A DNA stretch of 64,000 nucleotides, taken from the NCBI GenBank assembly GCA_963677705.1, contig OY782497.1, positions 4,703,603 through 4,767,602 of the forward strand, given 5' to 3'. Numbering within the stretch: the first letter of the stretch is position 1; each line of letters opens with the position of its first letter. The translations under genes and the position numbers were made by a program. The DNA comes from Myxococcota bacterium. Its GTDB lineage: Bacteria; Myxococcota_A; SURF-8; G963677705. The notes under the pieces are model-generated. The model saw nothing but the letters and a program-made list of their open reading frames with translations, was not told the origin of the DNA and did no database searches. Shown in pieces: positions 35,984-62,885 of the stretch.

Positions 35984-36017
35984 GGGCAAGACGGACTTTG
36001 CCCACTAGTTTCATGGA
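35984..36017 (+). promoter_or_regulatory. CsrA-type operator of flagellin 1
   Basis: GGGCAAG-ACGGAC-TTTGCCC hairpin plus ATGGA overlapping the SD. Confidence 0.7.
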
Positions 36018-36026
36018 GGTCTTGAC

Positions 36027-37190
36027 ATGGGATTCAGAATTCAAAACAATTTGGCGTCCATCAATGCTCACCGTTATCTGAGCATCAATGACAACTCGCT
36101 GAACCAAACCTTGGAACGCCTCTCGTCGGGCTACCGAATCAACAGCGCGGCGGATGATGCAGCGGGGCTTGCGGCTTCGATGCGGATGCGTACAGAAATT
36201 GCTAGCCTGAAGGTCGCTTCTCGTAATGCTACGGAAGCGAGCAGCGCTCTGCAAGTTGCCGAGGGTGCGATGAGCGAAATCGGCATTATTCTGGAACGCC
36301 TCAAAGAACTGGCGACTCAAGCTGCCAGCGGTAACTCCAGCGGGGACCGCTCCAAGATTGATGTAGAGCGCGCGCAACTGGTTCAGGAACTGGACCGGAT
36401 CGTCAGCTTCACCAAGTATGGTGACGATGTCCTGCTGGATGGCACCTTCGGTGGTGCGGAACTGGATGAGGTCAACACCACGGCCTATGTGGCGGGTATC
36501 ACCAATATCGACGTGACCAACGCCGACATCAGTGAAACCTATACCATCGACACCGGTGACTTGGATGGTGATGGCGATAACAACGATATCAGCCTCACCG
36601 ATTCCAACGGCAACGTGCAGACCATTCTGGACATCGCCGCTCCGGCTGGTGATCTGGCGATGAACGAAACCAAGCAACTGAACTTCAGTGACCTTGGCGT
36701 GGTTCTGACCTACAACAACCAGTTCGACATCGCCAACGGTGGCGCGATTGATGGAACCATCATTCAAACCACGGCAACGGCGGCCAAAGCCACCTACCAG
36801 GTCGGTAACAAAAACAACGGTACGAACCAGATTTCCTTCAGCATTGATTCGCTGAGTTCGAATACCTTGTTTGCTGCCGGTGGTGGTGCCATTGACTTTA
36901 CCACCGTCGCCGCAGCTCAAACGGCCTTGACGACCATTGATGATGCCGTCTCCAAACTGGCTACCGCTCGTGCGGATCTTGGTGCTTTGCTGAACCGCTT
37001 CAGTTATACATCCAGCAACCTTGCCACCAGCATCGAGAACAAGACGGCCAGTGAGTCGGTGATTCGCGATGTAGACATGGCCGCCGAGATGAGCAACTTC
37101 ACCAAGTACCAGATTCTGGTGCAGGCGGGAACCGCCATGTTGGCCCAGGCCAACCAGGCTCCGCAGAACATTCTTTCCTTGCTTCAATAG
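36027..37190 (+). CDS. fliC: Flagellin 1
   Basis: MGFRIQNN...RLSSGYRINSAADDAAG...IRDVDMAAEM...LAQANQ. Confidence 0.96.
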   Translation: MGFRIQNNLASINAHRYLSINDNSLNQTLERLSSGYRINSAADDAAGLAASMRMRTEIASLKVASRNATEASSALQVAEGAMSEIGIILERLKELATQAASGNSSGDRSKIDVERAQLVQELDRIVSFTKYGDDVLLDGTFGGAELDEVNTTAYVAGITNIDVTNADISETYTIDTGDLDGDGDNNDISLTDSNGNVQTILDIAAPAGDLAMNETKQLNFSDLGVVLTYNNQFDIANGGAIDGTIIQTTATAAKATYQVGNKNNGTNQISFSIDSLSSNTLFAAGGGAIDFTTVAAAQTALTTIDDAVSKLATARADLGALLNRFSYTSSNLATSIENKTASESVIRDVDMAAEMSNFTKYQILVQAGTAMLAQANQAPQNILSLLQ

Positions 37191-37213
37191 ATCAGTCACT
37201 TCCGTTCTTCATC

Positions 37214-37243
37214 AAACCGGCGGGGTTGTCCCGCCGGTTTTTT
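37214..37243 (+). terminator. Intrinsic terminator after flagellin 1
   Basis: AAACCGGCGGG-GTTGT-CCCGCCGGTTT-TTT. Confidence 0.85.
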
Positions 37244-37316
37244 CGTGCAACCAACGGGTTTTGCTCAATGAATGCGGTTAGGGGGAATTTTTTTCCGGAA
37301 AAATGCACGACCCCGG

Positions 37317-37343
37317 TAAAGAACTCCCACCTGATGACGATTC
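37317..37343 (+). promoter_or_regulatory. Sigma28 promoter of flagellin 2
   Basis: TAAA-N15-GACGATTC. Confidence 0.65.
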
Positions 37344-37414
37344 TATCTCGTGAAGGCGCTGGACAAATGGTTTGGCCGGGGCTTTCAAAACAAGTGAATC
37401 GTTTTTCTTATTTC

Positions 37415-37448
37415 GGGTGATACGGACATCGCCCACCCATTTCACGGA
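37415..37448 (+). promoter_or_regulatory. CsrA-type operator of flagellin 2
   Basis: GGGTGAT-ACGGAC-ATCGCCC hairpin plus ACGGA overlapping the SD. Confidence 0.7.
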
Positions 37449-37456
37449 GGTTTGTC

Positions 37457-38623
37457 ATGGGATTCCGCATTCAAAACAATATCGCTTCCATCAATGCACA
37501 CAACTATCTGACCAAGGCCGACAATATGATGTCGAAAACCTTGGGACGCCTGTCGTCGGGCTATCGCATCAATAGCGCGTCTGATGATGCCGCAGGCCTG
37601 TCTGCGTCGATGCGTCTTCGTGCAGAAACCGCCAGCTTGAAGGTGGCCAGCCGCAACGCGGCAGAGGCTTCCAGCTCGCTGCAAGTGGCGGAAGGCGCGA
37701 TGAACGAGATCGGCTCCATTCTGGAGCGGCTGAAAGAACTGGCCACCCAGGCCGCCAGCGGTAACGCCGGTGCCGACCTGGCCAAGATCGACGCCGAACG
37801 CTCCGATCTGACCGCTGAAATCGACCGGATCGTGAACTTCACCCAGTACGGTGGTGACACCCTGCTGGATGGTTCCTACGGTGGCGTGGCGTTGGATACC
37901 AACAATGCCAACTCCGATGCCTGGGATGTTCAGGGTGTGACCAACATCGACGTGAGCAATGCCAAAGTCAGCGAAACCTACACCATCACGGTGGGTGACT
38001 TCGACGGCGACGGTGACAACGATGATGTGACCTTGACCGACAGCAATGGTAATGCCCAGACCATTGAAGACCCGGAACTCTCTGCGAACCTGGGTATGAA
38101 CGAAGAACGTACGCTGAACTTCAGCGAACTGGGCGTGAAGATCAGCTACAACAGCCAGATGGGCCTTGTCGGTGGCGATCTTGCGGACCTCGATGGAACC
38201 AACGTGGTGACCTTGGCCACGGCTCCGACGGCGAAGTTCCAGATCGGTAACGAGAACAACGGTGACAACCAGATCGGTTTTGCCTTGAACAGTTTGGCCA
38301 CCGCCGACCTGTTCACTGCTGCGGTGGATCTTTCTTCGATGTCCGGTGCCCAGACGGCGCTTGACACCATCGACAGTGCGATCAGCAGCTTGGCCACGGA
38401 ACGCGGCAAAGTGGGTGCTTTGATGAACCGCTTCAGCTACGCATCCAGCAACCTTGCCACCAGCATCGAGAACAAGACGGCCAGTGAGTCGGTGATTCGC
38501 GATGTAGACATGGCCGCCGAGATGAGCAACTTCACCAAGTACCAGATTCTGGTGCAGGCGGGAACCAGCATGTTGGCCCAGGCCAATCAGGCTCCGCAGA
38601 ATGTGTTGTCGCTGCTGCGGTAA
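37457..38623 (+). CDS. fliC: Flagellin 2
   Basis: Flagellin N- and C-terminal conserved domains, 388 aa. Confidence 0.96.
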   Translation: MGFRIQNNIASINAHNYLTKADNMMSKTLGRLSSGYRINSASDDAAGLSASMRLRAETASLKVASRNAAEASSSLQVAEGAMNEIGSILERLKELATQAASGNAGADLAKIDAERSDLTAEIDRIVNFTQYGGDTLLDGSYGGVALDTNNANSDAWDVQGVTNIDVSNAKVSETYTITVGDFDGDGDNDDVTLTDSNGNAQTIEDPELSANLGMNEERTLNFSELGVKISYNSQMGLVGGDLADLDGTNVVTLATAPTAKFQIGNENNGDNQIGFALNSLATADLFTAAVDLSSMSGAQTALDTIDSAISSLATERGKVGALMNRFSYASSNLATSIENKTASESVIRDVDMAAEMSNFTKYQILVQAGTSMLAQANQAPQNVLSLLR

Positions 38624-38651
38624 GCTTCGCGCAAGTCTTTCAACCAAACCT

Positions 38652-38690
38652 GAAAACGGGAGAGGAAAATTCCTCTCCCGTTTTCTTTTT
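38652..38690 (+). terminator. Intrinsic terminator after flagellin 2
   Basis: GAAAACGGGAGAGGAA-AA-TTCCTCTCCCGTTTTC-TTTTT. Confidence 0.88.
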
Positions 38691-38693
38691 GTC

Positions 38694-38720
38694 TAAAGAT
38701 TCCAAAGAAATGTCCGATTC
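38694..38720 (+). promoter_or_regulatory. Sigma28 promoter of flagellin 3
   Basis: TAAA-N15-TCCGATTC. Confidence 0.72.
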
Positions 38721-38791
38721 AATACATGGAGGCCTAGCATGTGTCCGGACAACATTGATTGCAACTGTCTCCGTGTTCGACTCTACCTAGT

Positions 38792-38824
38792 GGGTGATAG
38801 GGATATCACCCCCAACATCAGGGA
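38792..38824 (+). promoter_or_regulatory. CsrA-type operator of flagellin 3
   Basis: GGGTGAT-AGGGAT-ATCACCC hairpin plus AGGGA overlapping the SD. Confidence 0.7.
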
Positions 38825-38832
38825 GGATAGCT

Positions 38833-45112: not shown

Positions 45113-45128
45113 TGGCACGTCCGTTGCT
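45113..45128 (+). promoter_or_regulatory. Sigma54 promoter of the TPR-EBP-flgB operon
   Basis: TGGCACGTCCGTTGCT is a near-perfect consensus match. Confidence 0.85.
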
Positions 45129-55679: not shown

Positions 55680-57224
55680 GTGGATGTAAGCATGGCTCCC
55701 TTTCTGATGGAGCCGATGAGCCACGAAACGGAGTCTCCGGCCCAAAGCCCGCCGGATTGGCAGGTTCATGATTCCTTTGAACGGGAACTGGATCAGGTGG
55801 ACCGTAAGCAGGAGAAAGGCTCCGTAGAGGATTATGCAAGCCATGATCCCGATGAGAATCAAGCAACCGATCAGGCGGTGTCCGCAAGGGAGGATGAAGA
55901 AAGGTACTCCGCCGAGCATGAAACCGACAACCCTTTAGATGATGAACACGACGATTCATACAGCGAGTCTCTTGATAAGCACGCCCCGTTGGAAGACCCG
56001 ATGGAACGGGCTTGGGATCGTCGGCAACAAGCCAGGGATCGCGCCCTGGAGGCACGGGAGCAGGCACGCTCCAACCGAGTAGAATCCACATCCTTTCTGG
56101 TCGCTGGGGCTGGACGAGACGGGCTTGCCGCAACGATGGCACAGCTTGTTTCTTCTACGCAACACGGGGGAAGGTCAAGTTCCTTGTCCAAAGCCTGGCA
56201 AGGGAATCAGCAAACCAAGCTTATGCAGCCTGTCGTAGAAGCCGCAGCTGGGAAGACCTCTGTTGAAGATCGTTTACAGAGCTTGTTGACCAGCTTGCAG
56301 AATCCTCGGACCTTCCAGTCCAAACCCTTGCATGTTGAAAAGCCATTGCCCTTCCATGACGCGGCGCTGAAGCCCTCGGTAGGAGGGAAGACTGCGCATC
56401 TGGAGAAGCCGATTCACAGCGTCGAGGGTACGAAACCTCCCTCTACGTTGAATGAAAGCGCTCAGGTTGATGTCAACCGTGAGCTTCACGTCCCGAAGGT
56501 TGCTCAGAGTAAGGCAGATGCCGCAGGTCGTCAGACCCAAGGCGCCGAAGGCTCTGACCGCCAGAATCAGGATCGTGTACCAACCACTCCGGGAGAGAAG
56601 TCTCAGACCAGCACTCAGCGTGAGTTGCAGGCCAGAGAAGCCAAGGCGGCGGCTAACCGTGTTGAGTTGGAGGGCCAGGATCGACAAACAGGAACACGGA
56701 AAGCATCTACGGCCAAACGCTTCGGAACCGAGATGGATCTGGCCCAAGGGGTGACCGGTAGCAAAAGTACCGCGACCAATGCCTCTTTGGGGAGTCAGGC
56801 TCTTTCTCGCTCGGTGGTGGTTAGCCGCATTCCGGAGCAGGTCAGTCAGATGATGGAGCAGGGCCAGAATAAGCTGGAACTTCGTCTGGACCCGCCGCAC
56901 CTGGGAAAACTGAATGTCTCGATTTCCCGCCAGGCCGATCATGTCGCGGTGAAGCTGGTGGTGCAGACCCAACACGCAGGGGACGCACTGAAGTCCATGC
57001 AATCGGAAATGTTGCAGAAGCTGGGTCTGGAAATCAACGATGCGGTGGAATTGTCTATCCATGTTGAAAGCCAGGCCAATCAGGGAGACGGAGGCTACGC
57101 ACAGCATCAGACCTTTGAAGAGGATGACGCGCCCAGCCAATCCGTAAGCCGTGTTCGTTCCCGACGTTCCTCAACCCAAACCGGCTCCGTCCATGATGGC
57201 GCGGGCTTGCATCTGATCGCCTGA
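55680..57224 (+). CDS. fliK: Hook-length control protein
   Basis: Low-complexity N-terminus and C-terminal [15 protein letters not shown], located before flgD. Confidence 0.88.
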
Positions 57225-58503: not shown

Positions 58504-59790
58504 ATGAGTTTGTTCAGAATGATGAATATTGGCTATTCCGGAATGATTGCCAATAGCTTTGCCATGAATGTGATTGGCGATAATATCGCCAACATGAACA
58601 CCATTGGTTTCAAGAAGAGCCGTGCCGTGTTTGCTGATGTCGTCGGTTCCCAGGTGGCCGGATGGGTCGCCGGATCGCGCCAAGGCATTGGTACTGAAGT
58701 GCAAGACTCGGAGAAAATGTTTGCTCAGGGGAGTATGCTCAGTACCGGAAGCAGCTTGGATCTGGCGATCAACGGTAATGGGTTCTTTGTGGTCCGTGGT
58801 GATCATAATGGAATCAATTCCAACTACTACACCCGCGCTGGGCAGTTCCATGTGGATAAGGAAGGCTACCTGATTGATGTCCACGGTCTGCGTGCCCAGG
58901 GATACGGTGCCGACGACCAGGGAAACATTGTCGGTGGCGTGGGGGATATGTACATCGGTGATAAGTCCACCCCGGCGACGGTGACCTCGTCGATTACCAT
59001 GAACGCGAACCTTCAGGCCGATGTGGATTCCATCCCTGGAGGCTTTGATGTCGCCGATCCGGACAACACGAGTAATTTCTCCAACGTCGTGACGGTCTAT
59101 GACAGTTTAGGCAACGCCCATGATGTGACTGTCTATTTCACCAAAACCGCAGACAACACCTGGGACTACAACGTGGTTGTTCCCGGTGATGATCACACCA
59201 GCGGCACCGATCAGATCTGTGCGGCGGGAACCCTCACCTTCAATACGGAAGGGGCCTTGCAGAGCCAGACCACAACGATGGCCTCGGACTTTGACTTTGT
59301 CGGTGCAACCCAGGATCAGGTCATTGATATGACCTTCGGAGATCCCATCGCGGATGGTGGAACCGGTTTTTCGGGAACGACCCAGTATGCCTCGGATTAT
59401 AGCGTAACCTTCCAAAGCCAGGATGGAGCCAGCTCCGGCAACCTGCAAAGTGTCTATATTGATGAAGGTGGCTTGATTACCGGCGTGTTCTCCAACGGGG
59501 AAAAACGGGAAATCGGCCAGCTTGCCCTGGCAACCTTCAAAGGAATGGGCTTGGATGGCGTCGGAGGAAATCTCTATACCGCGACCAAGGAAAGCGGTGA
59601 TCCCAGCGTAGGCGCCGCTGGTACGGGGGGACGCGGGGGCATTCAGACCTCCATGCTGGAGCAATCCAACGTGGATCTTACCGAAGAGTTCGTGAACCTG
59701 ATTACCGCCCAGCGCGGATTCCAGGCTTCCAGCAAGTCCATCAGCACGGCGGACTCTCTGTTGCAGGAAGTGGTGAACCTGCGTCGTTAA
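58504..59790 (+). CDS. flgE: Flagellar hook protein
   Basis: VIGDNIANMNTIGFK, DLAINGNGFF, YTRAGQF, VYDSLG, LEQSNVDLTEEFVNLITAQRGFQA. Confidence 0.96.
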   Translation: MSLFRMMNIGYSGMIANSFAMNVIGDNIANMNTIGFKKSRAVFADVVGSQVAGWVAGSRQGIGTEVQDSEKMFAQGSMLSTGSSLDLAINGNGFFVVRGDHNGINSNYYTRAGQFHVDKEGYLIDVHGLRAQGYGADDQGNIVGGVGDMYIGDKSTPATVTSSITMNANLQADVDSIPGGFDVADPDNTSNFSNVVTVYDSLGNAHDVTVYFTKTADNTWDYNVVVPGDDHTSGTDQICAAGTLTFNTEGALQSQTTTMASDFDFVGATQDQVIDMTFGDPIADGGTGFSGTTQYASDYSVTFQSQDGASSGNLQSVYIDEGGLITGVFSNGEKREIGQLALATFKGMGLDGVGGNLYTATKESGDPSVGAAGTGGRGGIQTSMLEQSNVDLTEEFVNLITAQRGFQASSKSISTADSLLQEVVNLRR

Positions 59791-59820
59791 TGGTTGGAAT
59801 CGTTTCCTGCGGCACGTATC

Positions 59821-60266
59821 GCCGAGGGAATGTTGATCACGCCGGGAGATTCCCGGTAGGGGAGGGACCCCCGAAAGCATGTCGGTCCCAGGCACGGACG
59901 CCTTGCCAGGTGGAATCCATGACGCCGCGTCGACACGGACACGGATCAGGTTTTCGGGGCGACCGGCACGATATCCGACAAGGCACGGATGGCTTGTTCG
60001 GACAACGCAAGGATGGTGGCAATCAACGGAGCGTGGTTGGAAGACTACGCGAGAGAGTGAAGGGTACGGAAACGCTTTGCTTTTTGCTTGCCCAATGAAC
60101 CTTGGTTCATGGCAACCCGTTGGGCCTTGTTGGAACGAATGAGGTCGTCATCCTTGATATGGCATGATAAGGAAGGGATTGCTTATCATGCCGCCATTTG
60201 CCTCTGTAGCAACCATCTATGATGGATCTTCATCCAAAGGGAACTCCGAGCCTCGGAGTTCCCTTT
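59821..60266 (+). ncRNA. Candidate CsrB/RsmY-like CsrA-binding RNA
   Basis: 13 ANGGA motifs, several in hairpin loops, ending in a 15-bp perfect inverted repeat. No credible ORF. Confidence 0.55.
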
Positions 60267-60587
60267 CATCGTTTTGGCATCCCTTACCCGTTCTTGGCGC
60301 GATTACGTGTCAAAAGACCGACTTTTTCTGGAGAATGCGGGGGTGCTTCCCTCAGAGGGATTGGTTTCAGATCCTTGGGACTTCGGAGAAGCCAACTCTT
60401 CCTGCCTTGGATACCTCGGTATCACTGTCTCTTGAAAATTATAAAAAACACATAGATTCCAGTAAGAAAGGTCGCTTTTGCTTCTGGTCGTGTCAAGTCT
60501 TGTTCCCCGGCTGGAGGCAGATGTTTGCCCTTCGTGTCAAATTCTCAACCCGTCCAGGTTTTGGCATTGGAAAGGCATCTTTCAAGT

Positions 60588-60603
60588 TGGCACACATGAT
60601 GCT
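60588..60603 (+). promoter_or_regulatory. Sigma54 promoter of the motA operon
   Basis: TGGCACACATGATGCT, with exact GG-N10-GC spacing, about 80 nt upstream of motA. Confidence 0.72.
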
Positions 60604-60681
60604 GTATCGGGGTGTGGAACCAATCCTTCTTCGTTGAGTTGACTTGAAACCTGATCCACTGAACCGGAAGAGAGAAAGATT

Positions 60682-61458
60682 ATGGATCTAGCAACCATCA
60701 TCGGATTTGTAGCAACCTTCGGTATGATTATCGGTGCCATCCTGGTTGGTGGCTCTCTCGGTGACTTTCTGGATGTCCCGTCTATTCTGATCACTGTGGG
60801 TGGTACCTTCACCGCAACCTTCATTACCTATCCATTCAGTGAGGTAGGTAAGCTGCCCAAGGTCATCAAACATGCCTTTTTGTACAAAGGTACCGAGGTC
60901 AGCTCAATCATCCGCGAAATCGTGGAGACGGCCCAGTTGGCACGTAAGAAGGGGTTGCTTTCCATTGAATCCAACCTGAAAGACGACAGCCACCCGCTGT
61001 TGCGTCTTGGGTTGCAATTGGTGGTGGATGGTCACGAAGCGAAGGACGTTGATCAGATCCTGGGTACCGAGATGGAAGGAATGAAAGAACGCCACCGTCA
61101 AGGGGCCGACCTCTTTGGTACGATGGGCCTGATTTCTCCTGCAATGGGATTGATCGGTACCCTGATTGGACTGGTGCAGATGTTGAAGAACCTATCTGAT
61201 CCGTCCTCTATCGGTCCGGCAATGGCCGTTGCGTTGTTGACGACATTCTACGGCTCCTTGTTGGCCAACATCATTTTCAACCCCATTGCCAACAAACTGA
61301 AGACCCGTAGCCAGGACGAAGAGACGGTGAAGTCGATGATCGTCACGGGCGTGCTGGCCATTCTTTCCGGGGATAACCCGCGCATCATTGAACACAAGTT
61401 GAATTCCTTCCTGCCGAAGGTCCAGCATGTGGATGTCTTCAACGCCGGTGCAGAGTAA
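60682..61458 (+). CDS. motA: Stator A subunit (MotA/PomA family)
   Basis: DVPSILITVGGT, LGLQLVVDG, PAMGLIGTLIGLVQML, MAVALLTTFYG, NPRII. Confidence 0.95.
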   Translation: MDLATIIGFVATFGMIIGAILVGGSLGDFLDVPSILITVGGTFTATFITYPFSEVGKLPKVIKHAFLYKGTEVSSIIREIVETAQLARKKGLLSIESNLKDDSHPLLRLGLQLVVDGHEAKDVDQILGTEMEGMKERHRQGADLFGTMGLISPAMGLIGTLIGLVQMLKNLSDPSSIGPAMAVALLTTFYGSLLANIIFNPIANKLKTRSQDEETVKSMIVTGVLAILSGDNPRIIEHKLNSFLPKVQHVDVFNAGAE

Positions 61459-61492
61459 ACAGGATAACCCTTGAGAGCGACGGAGGTGCGTT

Positions 61493-62194
61493 ATGCCGCA
61501 ACCCGTAAAGAAAAAATTTATCGAAGTCAGAGATCCGGCAGCTCCCCTGTTTCTCGGCCTGATGATTATCATGCTTGCCTTCTTCATCGTCCTGAACAGC
61601 ATGGCCACCCAAGATGAAATCCGCACGTTGAAGGCTCTGGAAAGCATCGCCTTCGGCTTTGGAACCTCCGGGGGTAGCAATCGCGTGATTGATCTGAACT
61701 ACCAGGATTCCAGTCTGAAAGAACCGATGAGCATGGAAAAACGCCTGCGCCGCATGGTGCGTGACGTGTTCCTGAGCCAACGTGATCTTCGAGATCAGAT
61801 TCATTTCATGGAAGACGAGCGCAAACTGATCTTAACCCTGGATGGCCTGCTGACCTTCGGAAATAATCGTTCGGCTCTGAACCCGGTGGTCTTTCCGATT
61901 CTTGATCGTCTTGCCTCGATCATCCGTACCACCTCGCAGCCGGTCTACATTCAAGGTCACGCCGAGCCGGATGGTTCACCCAACCGGAACTACAATTACA
62001 TCCTGGCCGCCAAACGAGCCTGGAGTGTTTACACCTATCTGTTGGAAAGCGGACGGATTCCTTCACACCTGCTGGTACCGGAAAGCTTTGGCGACCTGGT
62101 CCCCCCGCGCAAGAACGCCCTGAGTAAAAACGCACCGGAATGGCGTCGGGTCAACCTCGTATTCTACAAGGATGAAGTCGATGTTCGACGATAA
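61493..62194 (+). CDS. MotB-like protein 1 (no conserved TM Asp; OmpA-like C-terminus)
   Basis: TM FLGLMIIMLAFFIVLNSMA, C-terminal IQGHAE...NYILAAKRA...RRVNLV. Confidence 0.82.
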   Translation: MPQPVKKKFIEVRDPAAPLFLGLMIIMLAFFIVLNSMATQDEIRTLKALESIAFGFGTSGGSNRVIDLNYQDSSLKEPMSMEKRLRRMVRDVFLSQRDLRDQIHFMEDERKLILTLDGLLTFGNNRSALNPVVFPILDRLASIIRTTSQPVYIQGHAEPDGSPNRNYNYILAAKRAWSVYTYLLESGRIPSHLLVPESFGDLVPPRKNALSKNAPEWRRVNLVFYKDEVDVRR

Positions 62195-62885
62195 GAAAAA
62201 ACAAAAAGTGGTGGAGATCATCTCCTATCCGGATGCCTGGATGCTCACCTTCAGTGACCTGGTAACCCTGATGCTCACGTTCTTCGTCCTGCTTCTGTCG
62301 ATGAGCCATATGGATACCGAAAAGGCCGCGATCATGTTCCAGGCGATGATTGACCAGAACAGCGGCATCAACCCCGTTGAAAACACCCGTCGTCTGATGC
62401 CTGCCACCCAGGATTTGTCGGCCCATGTCCCGCCACCACCGCACCAGACCGTGCGTGGCAACAGTCCCAAGGAATTGCATCAGAACCTGATGCGTTGGAT
62501 CAATAGCAATCGTCTGGAAAAGAACCTGAGTGTGAAACAGGAAGGCAAGGAACTGGTGATCCGGATTACCGATGACATCAGCTTTGAAAACGGATCGGCG
62601 ACCATTCCTGAAAAGCTGAAACCCATTCTGGCTACCCTGGCCAACCTGTTGGACAGCTACGAACATCACCGCCTGCGCATTGATACCTATTGCCGGGCGG
62701 AGGAAATGGACAGTGAAGAGGCGATGCGTTCCCTCTCTCTGCGACGGGCCACCACACTGGCCGAGGAATTGGGAAAACGCTCGGAAAACGACAGAATTGT
62801 TTCACTGATGGGGTATCCCCGTCCGCCCACCGAAGATGAAACCGACCAAGGGTATGTGGTCTTCACCATTAAGAAGGAGAAATGA
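62172..62885 (+). CDS. motB: MotB-like protein 2 (canonical TM Asp; degenerate OmpA-like domain)
   Basis: TM WMLTFSDLVTLMLTFFVLLLSMS, C-terminal SFENGSATI...LSLRRA but no GHTD. Confidence 0.88.
   Translation: MKSMFDDKKKQKVVEIISYPDAWMLTFSDLVTLMLTFFVLLLSMSHMDTEKAAIMFQAMIDQNSGINPVENTRRLMPATQDLSAHVPPPPHQTVRGNSPKELHQNLMRWINSNRLEKNLSVKQEGKELVIRITDDISFENGSATIPEKLKPILATLANLLDSYEHHRLRIDTYCRAEEMDSEEAMRSLSLRRATTLAEELGKRSENDRIVSLMGYPRPPTEDETDQGYVVFTIKKEK

Follow-up and report, generated by a model that had tools for sequence, protein, structure and literature searches.

What is encoded in the long spacer that follows the hook gene flgE in an uncultured member of the Myxococcota known only from metagenome assemblies? 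The spacer lies in a stretch of 64,000 nucleotides (nt) of the forward strand (contig OY782497.1, assembly GCA_963677705.1), hereafter called the window, and is unusually rich in ANGGA pentamers. A preliminary description of this DNA had proposed that the segment 59791-60266 specifies an RNA sponge for the translational regulator CsrA, transcribed together with the hook operon, that would release flagellin translation once hook genes are expressed. The analysis reported here indicates that the array of GGA motifs is a real, selected and lineage-restricted RNA element, which most likely binds CsrA (coordinates of the locus are collected in Table 1).

The 13 ANGGA motifs that had been listed in this segment are all exact on the + strand, at 59825, 59863, 59894, 59935, 59941, 59985, 60009, 60026, 60066, 60169, 60174, 60222 and 60238, and a 14th occurs beyond the segment at 60356. 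Twelve of the 13 belong to the array proper, the last one being located in the stem of the terminator. The chance expectation had been estimated by hand at about 2, a value in agreement with the genome mean of 2.17 (standard deviation 1.6) per 450-nt window per strand. In dinucleotide shuffles of the segment, 3.25 ± 1.7 ANGGA were obtained and the observed number was reached in none of 2000 shuffles; the same was true of ACGGA alone, with 6 occurrences for 0.84 expected (0/2000). No enrichment was found on the - strand of 59791-60266 (3 ANGGA compared to 1.6 expected). When the density was computed in windows over the whole genome, as the preliminary description had suggested, the segment proved to be the genome-wide extreme: only eight loci, both strands considered, contain at least 12 ANGGA per 450 nt, seven of them inside long open reading frames (ORFs), and the array is the only non-coding locus of such density in the 5.18-Mb genome. 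A BLAST search of the gap between flgE and motA against its own genome revealed no second copy, and this uniqueness rules out a repeat or a mobile element.

It should be noted that the other ACGGA- or ANGGA-rich loci are mostly coding tandem repeats of an acidic, D-T-D-G-D-like type, inside ORFs of up to 1901 amino acids (aa) (G000 4819297-4820987, 210915, 1034022, 1748740, 2098294, 3238930 and 4310878; loci L195-L209 of G003/G004). Such acidic coding repeats are a systematic source of false positives in scans for GGA density. Among the other non-coding ANGGA-rich loci of the genome (8-11 per 450 nt), all diffuse, no second array was found, and the locus at 5046361 is antisense to a gene for a sigma54 activator.

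The stretch 59791-60235 is non-coding. The ORFs of the gap (102 aa, 87 aa and 157 aa, together with antisense frames) have codon-usage scores between -0.09 and -0.30, like those of wrong frames, the true frames of the genome scoring 0.235 ± 0.125 (5th percentile, 0.008). Neither the 102-aa nor the 157-aa ORF has a match in Pfam, and an exhaustive search of 1.84 billion representative proteins with the 102-aa ORF returned one low-complexity match and no real homologue.

The RNA that would be read from the + strand folds better (-212.5 kcal/mol, z = -5.3) than that of the - strand (-184.7 kcal/mol, z = -4.3). The hairpins that had been listed from inspection of the letters all exist, including the 11-bp (base pair) stem at 60161-60192 and the perfect 15-nt inverted repeat at 60236-60266; two of them, ACAAGGC/GGCTTGT and GAAGGGT/ACGCTTT, each contain one G-G mismatch. 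In the global ensemble, the GGA at 59894, 59985, 60066 and 60174 is unpaired at P >= 0.96. Local folding leaves 7 of the 13 sites unpaired at P >= 0.7, with a mean unpaired probability of GGA of 0.59 compared to 0.38 for random triplets (P ~0.014). An energy-based scan of every genomic ANGGA called six loop-presented motifs here at a folding free energy (dG) <= -4, the call at 59825 being doubtful; only eight loci of the genome hold at least five such motifs, and the rest all lie in coding sequence of one or the other strand. The motifs of the array are therefore displayed, apart from some that are buried in stems, in loops or single strands, and the hairpins H1 (C-ACGGAC-G) and H2 (C-ACGGAU-G) are literal cases of CANGGANG, the high-affinity apical hexaloop of CsrA/RsmE cited in Dugar et al. 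(PMC4894983).

The proposal supposes that the organism has a CsrA. Both csrA and fliW, for which a genome search had been recommended, are present in the cluster flgK-flgL-ORF-csrA-fliW, which is the ancestral flagellar arrangement. The csrA gene is single (G000 4889875-4890135, 86 aa, Pfam 68.6 bits) and adjoins fliW; the ORF between flgL and csrA encodes 281 aa (G000 4888996-4889841). Throughout the order, every flgE-bearing genome has exactly one csrA, and the sole genome devoid of flgE has none. The leaders of the three flagellin genes (35984, 37415 and 38792) contain a 7-bp hairpin with the hexaloops ACGGAC, ACGGAC and AGGGAT, respectively, plus an ANGGAGG Shine-Dalgarno sequence, and are predicted on this layout to be two-site CsrA operators of the type known from hag and flaA. 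The hexaloops of these leaders recur in the array.

As to how the array is transcribed, a pattern scan detected no sigma70- or sigma54-like promoter before it, in line with the earlier statement that no separate promoter could be found, and no promoter of its own under GacA/UvrY-type control was seen, GacA boxes not having been specifically searched for. A terminator scan placed no terminator between flgE and the array and one directly after it. Since the array has no detectable promoter and is located between the flgE stop codon and a terminator, co-transcription is the natural reading, and the simplest interpretation is that it would be transcribed as the 3' untranslated region (UTR) of the hook operon. 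The flgE gene is the last of 14 co-directional and tightly packed flagellar genes (gaps <=153 nt), headed at 45113 by TGGCACGTCCGTTGCT, the sole perfect sigma54 promoter consensus in the window. The array does not have the position of a CsrA operator in an mRNA leader: no ORF follows it in the transcript, as the terminator at 60236-60277 and the promoter at 60588 intervene.

To what extent the array is under selection can be read from one other locus. The closest relative found by FlgE protein search (P0003, FlgE 88% identical) is represented by a 52-kb ENA contig, locus L193, and no further close relative came from a search with MotA, where identity did not exceed 54%. L193 is thus the only informative close relative and, with two sequences, covariation is descriptive and carries no significance test. 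The motA gene of L193 (2503-3453) is broken into short called genes (142, 41 and 44 aa), which suggests an error-prone long-read assembly with frameshift or indel errors; because of this fragmentation, indels in its array need caution.

Four-fold degenerate sites of flgE, motB and fliL are 53% identical between the window and L193, a value indicating that neutral sites are near saturation. The flgE-motA gap of L193 aligns with that of the window, and the array as a whole is 51% identical, its first 70 nt after the flgE stop being poorly conserved. Identity rises to 68% for the ANGGA motifs (P = 0.0055 in comparison with random pentamers) and to 95% for the four apical-loop motifs, the sole change, AGGGA to ACGGA, retaining the motif. 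On the + strand of L193, 425 nt hold 11 ANGGA (shuffles 3.6 ± 1.7, 0/2000), and the - strand lacks the motif; for 8 of these 11, presentation in an apical hairpin loop is possible. Several of the 11 are new sites that do not align with those of the window, so that motif number, 13 versus 11, appears to be maintained by turnover.

The hairpins themselves behave in a similar manner. In L193, H1 is GGGC-ACGGAA-GUCC: a compensatory change has turned one A-U into G-C, another pair has gone from G-C to G-U, and ACACGGA is kept near the tandem site, at 1800. The loop CACGGA of H2 is invariant and is carried by a 12-bp helix of different sequence, AACGGG/CCCGTT replacing ACAAG/CTTGT; at the place of H2b, a different hairpin displays AUGGAA within a 7-nt loop. 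In H3, GAAGGGTACGGA(A/G)ACGCTT is conserved, and the extended stem shows two compensatory and three one-sided changes without a broken pair, two G-U pairs of the window becoming G-C. H4 of L193 has a 13-bp stem and the hexaloop ACGGAA, with the compensatory changes U-A to C-G and A-U to G-C. G-U pairs are present in H1 of L193 and in H3 of the window, on the strand that folds better. Over the 21 pairs of H1, H3 and H4 taken together, three changes are compensatory, three are one-sided and one terminal pair is broken; RNAalifold applied to the H3-H4 block gave 35 pairs, seven of them changed on both sides and none broken. The terminator of L193 occupies the same position with an unrelated stem (ACGGGTTCTCG/CGAGAACCCGT) and the tail TTTTTCGTTTTGG. 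As a separate observation, H4 of L193 (2013-2056) directly precedes a run of six U and may itself be a terminator, giving two tandem terminators there.

Described as a whole, this pattern is what selection on loop-presented GGA hairpins would produce, and it points to loop motifs kept by purifying selection while the stems undergo compensatory changes. Conservation of GGA in relatives, on which the sponge idea had been made to depend, is therefore observed in the sole close relative, where both the loops and, through compensatory changes, the stems are kept.

Beyond this relative, the array was not encountered. Seven order-level relatives (FlgE 45-55% identical) have a classical terminator hairpin 20-60 nt after flgE and no GGA cluster, and at least two of them have a TTGGCAT-N5-TTGCA promoter before motA; compared to these loci, the window has ~445 nt inserted between the flgE stop codon and the terminator. 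A DNA search for the array in 40 relatives gave no match. Among genome and metagenome contig loci retrieved with FlgE, none exceeded 45% identity, and ~173 foreign flgE loci have no downstream non-coding ANGGA cluster; the best candidates among them, L125 and L025, are coding. Metagenome-assembled genomes of Myxococcota provide the nearest named FlgE homologues (~45-50% identical), and the organism is the sole member of its genus and family among the species genomes compared. An order-wide pattern search for three spaced CACGGA retrieved acidic coding repeats only. From these searches, the array appears to be confined to a single lineage at the level of a genus or family. Two loci from one family of the order (L191 of G001, 1282-2594, and L192 of G004, 1285-2459) have ~1.1 kb between the flgE terminator and motA, and this insert carries a - strand ORF of ~270-290 aa.

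How could such an element act? In the explanation that we favour, the array is a putative CsrA decoy. The sigma54-driven flgB...flgE operon transcript would run through the array and end at 60236-60277; it may afterwards be shortened to a stable 3' piece that its hairpins and terminator protect. Some 6-8 A(N)GGA would be exposed in hairpin loops or short single-stranded stretches, so that several dimers of the single, flagellum-linked, FliW-type CsrA could be bound per transcript. Free CsrA would be lowered while the hook operon and the middle genes are transcribed, and CsrA repression of the three flagellin mRNAs would be relieved, on top of the FliW protein switch. We regard titration, CsrA binding included, as evenly balanced between right and wrong. 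The fuller proposal, in which a FliW-type CsrA is under two antagonists, FliW and an independently evolved multi-site RNA decoy in the 3' end of a sigma54 hook operon, is put forward tentatively, as a possible arrangement on the improbable side.

Several points weigh against the decoy. CsrA in FliW systems is considered to be controlled near-stoichiometrically by FliW, and the mRNA of the hook operon is normally far scarcer than flagellin mRNA; because of this scarcity, effective titration would require a stable, accumulating fragment. With 13 ANGGA or 21 GGA in 476 nt, the density of motifs is lower than that of CsrB. Exposure in a loop is robust in the global fold for only 4 of the 13 motifs, and several lie in stems (59825, 60009 and 60238). 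The covariation relies on two sequences. A cmscan of 59000-61500 against all 4227 families of Rfam 15 gave no match at E <= 10, those for CsrB and Rsm included, for which an Infernal search had been suggested; because of this result, the array is to be considered an analogue and not a member of the CsrB/Rsm family. Lastly, order-level relatives lack the array, and a covariance model of the H3-H4 block (R1), run on 301 genomes of the phylum, matched the own genome only, and for these two reasons the array is a young and dispensable add-on.

The features of known systems help to place the element. Like CsrB, CsrC, RsmX, RsmY and RsmZ, the array is non-coding, has many A(N)GGA, several CANGGANG-type hexaloops and an intrinsic terminator at its end; here again, a cognate CsrA is encoded in the genome and the number of motifs is kept while the sequence drifts. 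Unlike these decoys, with which it shares no homology in sequence or structure, it is located in the 3' UTR of a flagellar structural gene, and its putative partner is a FliW-type, flagellum-linked CsrA of a non-gammaproteobacterial lineage. A closer likeness in origin is offered by RsmU of Xanthomonas (PMC7694677) and by RsmW of Pseudomonas aeruginosa, a 3'-UTR-derived RNA whose binding to RsmA was shown, which is thought to be processed from a co-transcript and which has three of its seven GGA in loops (PMC4950607). As in RsmW, no terminator separates the gene from the RNA and no independent promoter is present (PMC4950607). RsmW differs by its size (~120 nt with 7 GGA, compared to ~445 nt with 13 ANGGA) and by its position after a small hypothetical gene, the array following flgE of a 14-gene cluster; the two RNAs are not homologous, and protein binding, demonstrated for RsmW, is predicted for the array.

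Among FliW-type bacteria, the flaA mRNA of Campylobacter jejuni titrates CsrA alongside FliW (Dugar et al. 2016, PMC4894983). The array resembles the flaA leader in having mRNA-borne GGA hexaloops in the presence of a FliW-type flagellar CsrA. By contrast, flaA is a translationally repressed 5' leader with two GGA hexaloops and probably one dimer, whereas the array is a multi-site 3' UTR without a downstream ORF. In the same bacterium, CJnc230 (FlmE) is processed from the 3' end of the flgE mRNA, represses the flgM and Cj1387c mRNAs and promotes late flagellar genes (Konig et al. 2024, PMC11187230), thus linking middle-gene to late flagellin expression (PMC11187230). The array shares with CJnc230 its place directly 3' of flgE on the same strand, and its predicted co-transcription from an RpoN (sigma54) promoter would be a further likeness. 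It is four to five times longer than CJnc230, contains GGA hairpins and has no homology to it. In the hag leader of Bacillus subtilis, a BS1 hairpin together with BS2 over the Shine-Dalgarno sequence constitutes the CsrA operator. This layout is matched by the three flagellin leaders of the present genome, whose hexaloops are those found again in the array; the array itself, unlike the hag leader, does not lead into a gene, being separated from motA by a terminator and a sigma54 promoter.

The same structural and motif evidence would also be accounted for if the RNA bound CsrA in cis, docking on the 3' UTR altering how the flgE/hook-operon mRNA is processed or localised, or how stable it is. 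Since free CsrA reports flagellin that is not yet exported, expression of hook genes would in this way be tied to that signal. The array is physically on the flgE transcript, no promoter having been found and the terminator coming after it; the levels of the RsmW co-transcript reportedly change with RsmA (PMC4950607), and CsrA of C. jejuni binds many flagellar mRNAs (PMC4894983). However, six to eight sites far exceed what a cis switch needs, known CsrA cis sites are mostly in 5' leaders over the Shine-Dalgarno sequence, and relatives manage flgE without the array. We consider action in cis, and likewise its coupling to the export signal, to be unlikely, if worth keeping in mind.

Conservation of structure does not by itself name the ligand, and the RNA could be a structured 3' UTR, or a small RNA derived from it, that does not involve CsrA: a base-pairing RNA resembling CJnc230/FlmE, a platform for another RNA-binding protein, or a stabilising or processing element. 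The genomic position and the presumed sigma54 co-transcription are the same as for CJnc230 (PMC11187230). Nevertheless, it is A(C/G)GGA in apical loops that is conserved while stems and linkers drift, the loops are identical to the CsrA consensus and to those of the flagellin operators, and turnover at a steady number of motifs is more readily expected of an array bound by protein than of one base-pairing seed. In a crude RNAduplex test against flgM (-70 to +30), 86% of random 100-mers bound more strongly. A role independent of CsrA is judged improbable.

That the segment has no function, being a decayed gene remnant or a duplicated G-rich spacer in which small duplications produced the GGA excess, would agree with the short internal duplications AGGCACGGACGCCTTG and AGGCACGGATGGCTTG, with the tandem ACGGAC-ACGGA and with the order-level relatives devoid of the array. 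Such a remnant is very hard to reconcile with loop motifs that are 95% conserved over a neutral background of 51-53%, with the compensatory changes in stems, with a terminator of different sequence at the same position, and with a motif number and a strand bias that are kept though neutral sites are saturated, and we give it little credence. As for a small protein in the slot that flbD occupies in some bacteria, the 102-aa frame (59790-60098) is open and its ATG overlaps the flgE stop codon as TAATG, typical of translational coupling, but its codon score of -0.09 is under the 5th percentile of true frames, it has neither a Pfam match nor a real homologue among the representative proteins, L193 lacks the ORF and the overlap (the corresponding ATG frame stops after 5 codons) and no gene is called in the gap in the public assembly, so that this idea is hardly credible. 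The remark in the preliminary description that the segment occupies the slot of flbD carries no weight, as relatives have a terminator and a motA promoter there and no gene.

Table 1. Coordinates of the flgE-motA locus and of the reference flagellin leaders in the 64-kb window
Feature	Position	Strand	Remarks
Leaders of three flagellin genes, reference CsrA operators (predicted)	35984..38830	+	Flagellin_N and Flagellin_C domains
flgE, hook protein, 428 aa	58504..59790	+	Pfam FlgE_D2, Flg_bbr_C, Flg_bb_rod
Non-coding GGA array, putative 3' UTR of the flgE transcript or RNA processed from it	59791..60235	+	
H1, AGGC-ACGGAC-GCCT	59890..59903	+	4-bp stem, hexaloop ACGGAC; GGA unpaired P = 0.96
Tandem ACGGA-C-ACGGA	59932..59948	+	partly single-stranded
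H2, interrupted stem of ~12 bp with C-ACGGAU-G at its tip	59974..60002	+	dG = -13; GGA unpaired P = 1.0
H2b, CAATCA-ACGGAGCG-TGGTTG	60020..60039	+	weaker hairpin, GGA in 8-nt loop
H3, interrupted stem presenting U-ACGGAA-A	60054..60083	+	GGA unpaired P = 1.0; best-conserved block of the array
H4, 11-bp stem with AGGGA in the loop	60161..60192	+	dG = -19; UUU after the stem
Intrinsic-terminator-like hairpin, 14 bp, with U-rich tail: AAAGGGAACTCCGAG-C-CTCGGAGTTCCCTTT CATCGTTTTGG	60236..60277	+	terminator scan, inverted repeat
motA promoter region, outside the array	60278..60681	+	sigma54 promoter and three GTGTCAA boxes
motA	60682..61458	+	Pfam MotA_ExbB

The surroundings of the array are those of a flagellar locus. 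The genome is a single contig with 54.9% G+C, and a second ENA metagenome assembly carries the same organism with an identical sequence, again without a gene call in the flgE-motA gap. The flagellar genes recognised by Pfam in the window are fliK (55680-57224), flgD, a small 'Flagellar_put' gene, flgE, motA, two motB paralogues and fliL; the two MotB-like genes (61493-62885), which come after motA, both have MotB_plug and OmpA domains and overlap by 23 nt. The distance from flgE to motA is 891 nt. The sigma54 promoter of motA, TGGCACACATGATGCT at 60588-60603 (10/11 in the pattern scan), is ~80 nt 5' of the motA start and is kept in L193. Three GTGTCAA boxes, CGTGTCAAAAG at 60307, CGTGTCAAGTC at 60490 and CGTGTCAAATT at 60534, precede it by 50-280 nt. 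They represent 3 of the 6 + strand occurrences in the window; the same number is found in L193 (2104, 2134 and 2361), and a sigma54 activator may use the boxes as enhancers. Finally, the 11-mers TAGCAACCATC and ATGATGGATCT are found just 5' of the terminator (60207-60229) and, in swapped order, at the motA start (60679-60699, ATTATGGATCT and TAGCAACCATC), and may be the remnant of a rearrangement or duplication that made the long spacer.

RNA sponges are the textbook antagonists of CsrA in Gammaproteobacteria, FliW being that of the ancestral flagellum-linked systems of Bacillus, Campylobacter and spirochaetes, and FliW-type systems have been reported to lack antagonising small RNAs (PMC4894983). 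In the literature searched, a multi-site GGA array in the flgE 3' UTR of a FliW-type non-gammaproteobacterium appears to be undescribed. If the array is the decoy that we favour, RNA decoys for CsrA would have arisen more than once and could coexist with FliW, and one element would join the ideas of a 3'-UTR-derived Rsm RNA and of a regulatory RNA from the 3' end of flgE. Being limited to one lineage and lacking in order-level relatives, this young array would offer a snapshot of the birth of such an element between a stop codon and a terminator. For the organism, it would mean that transcription of the middle genes directly licenses the translation of late flagellins at the RNA level.

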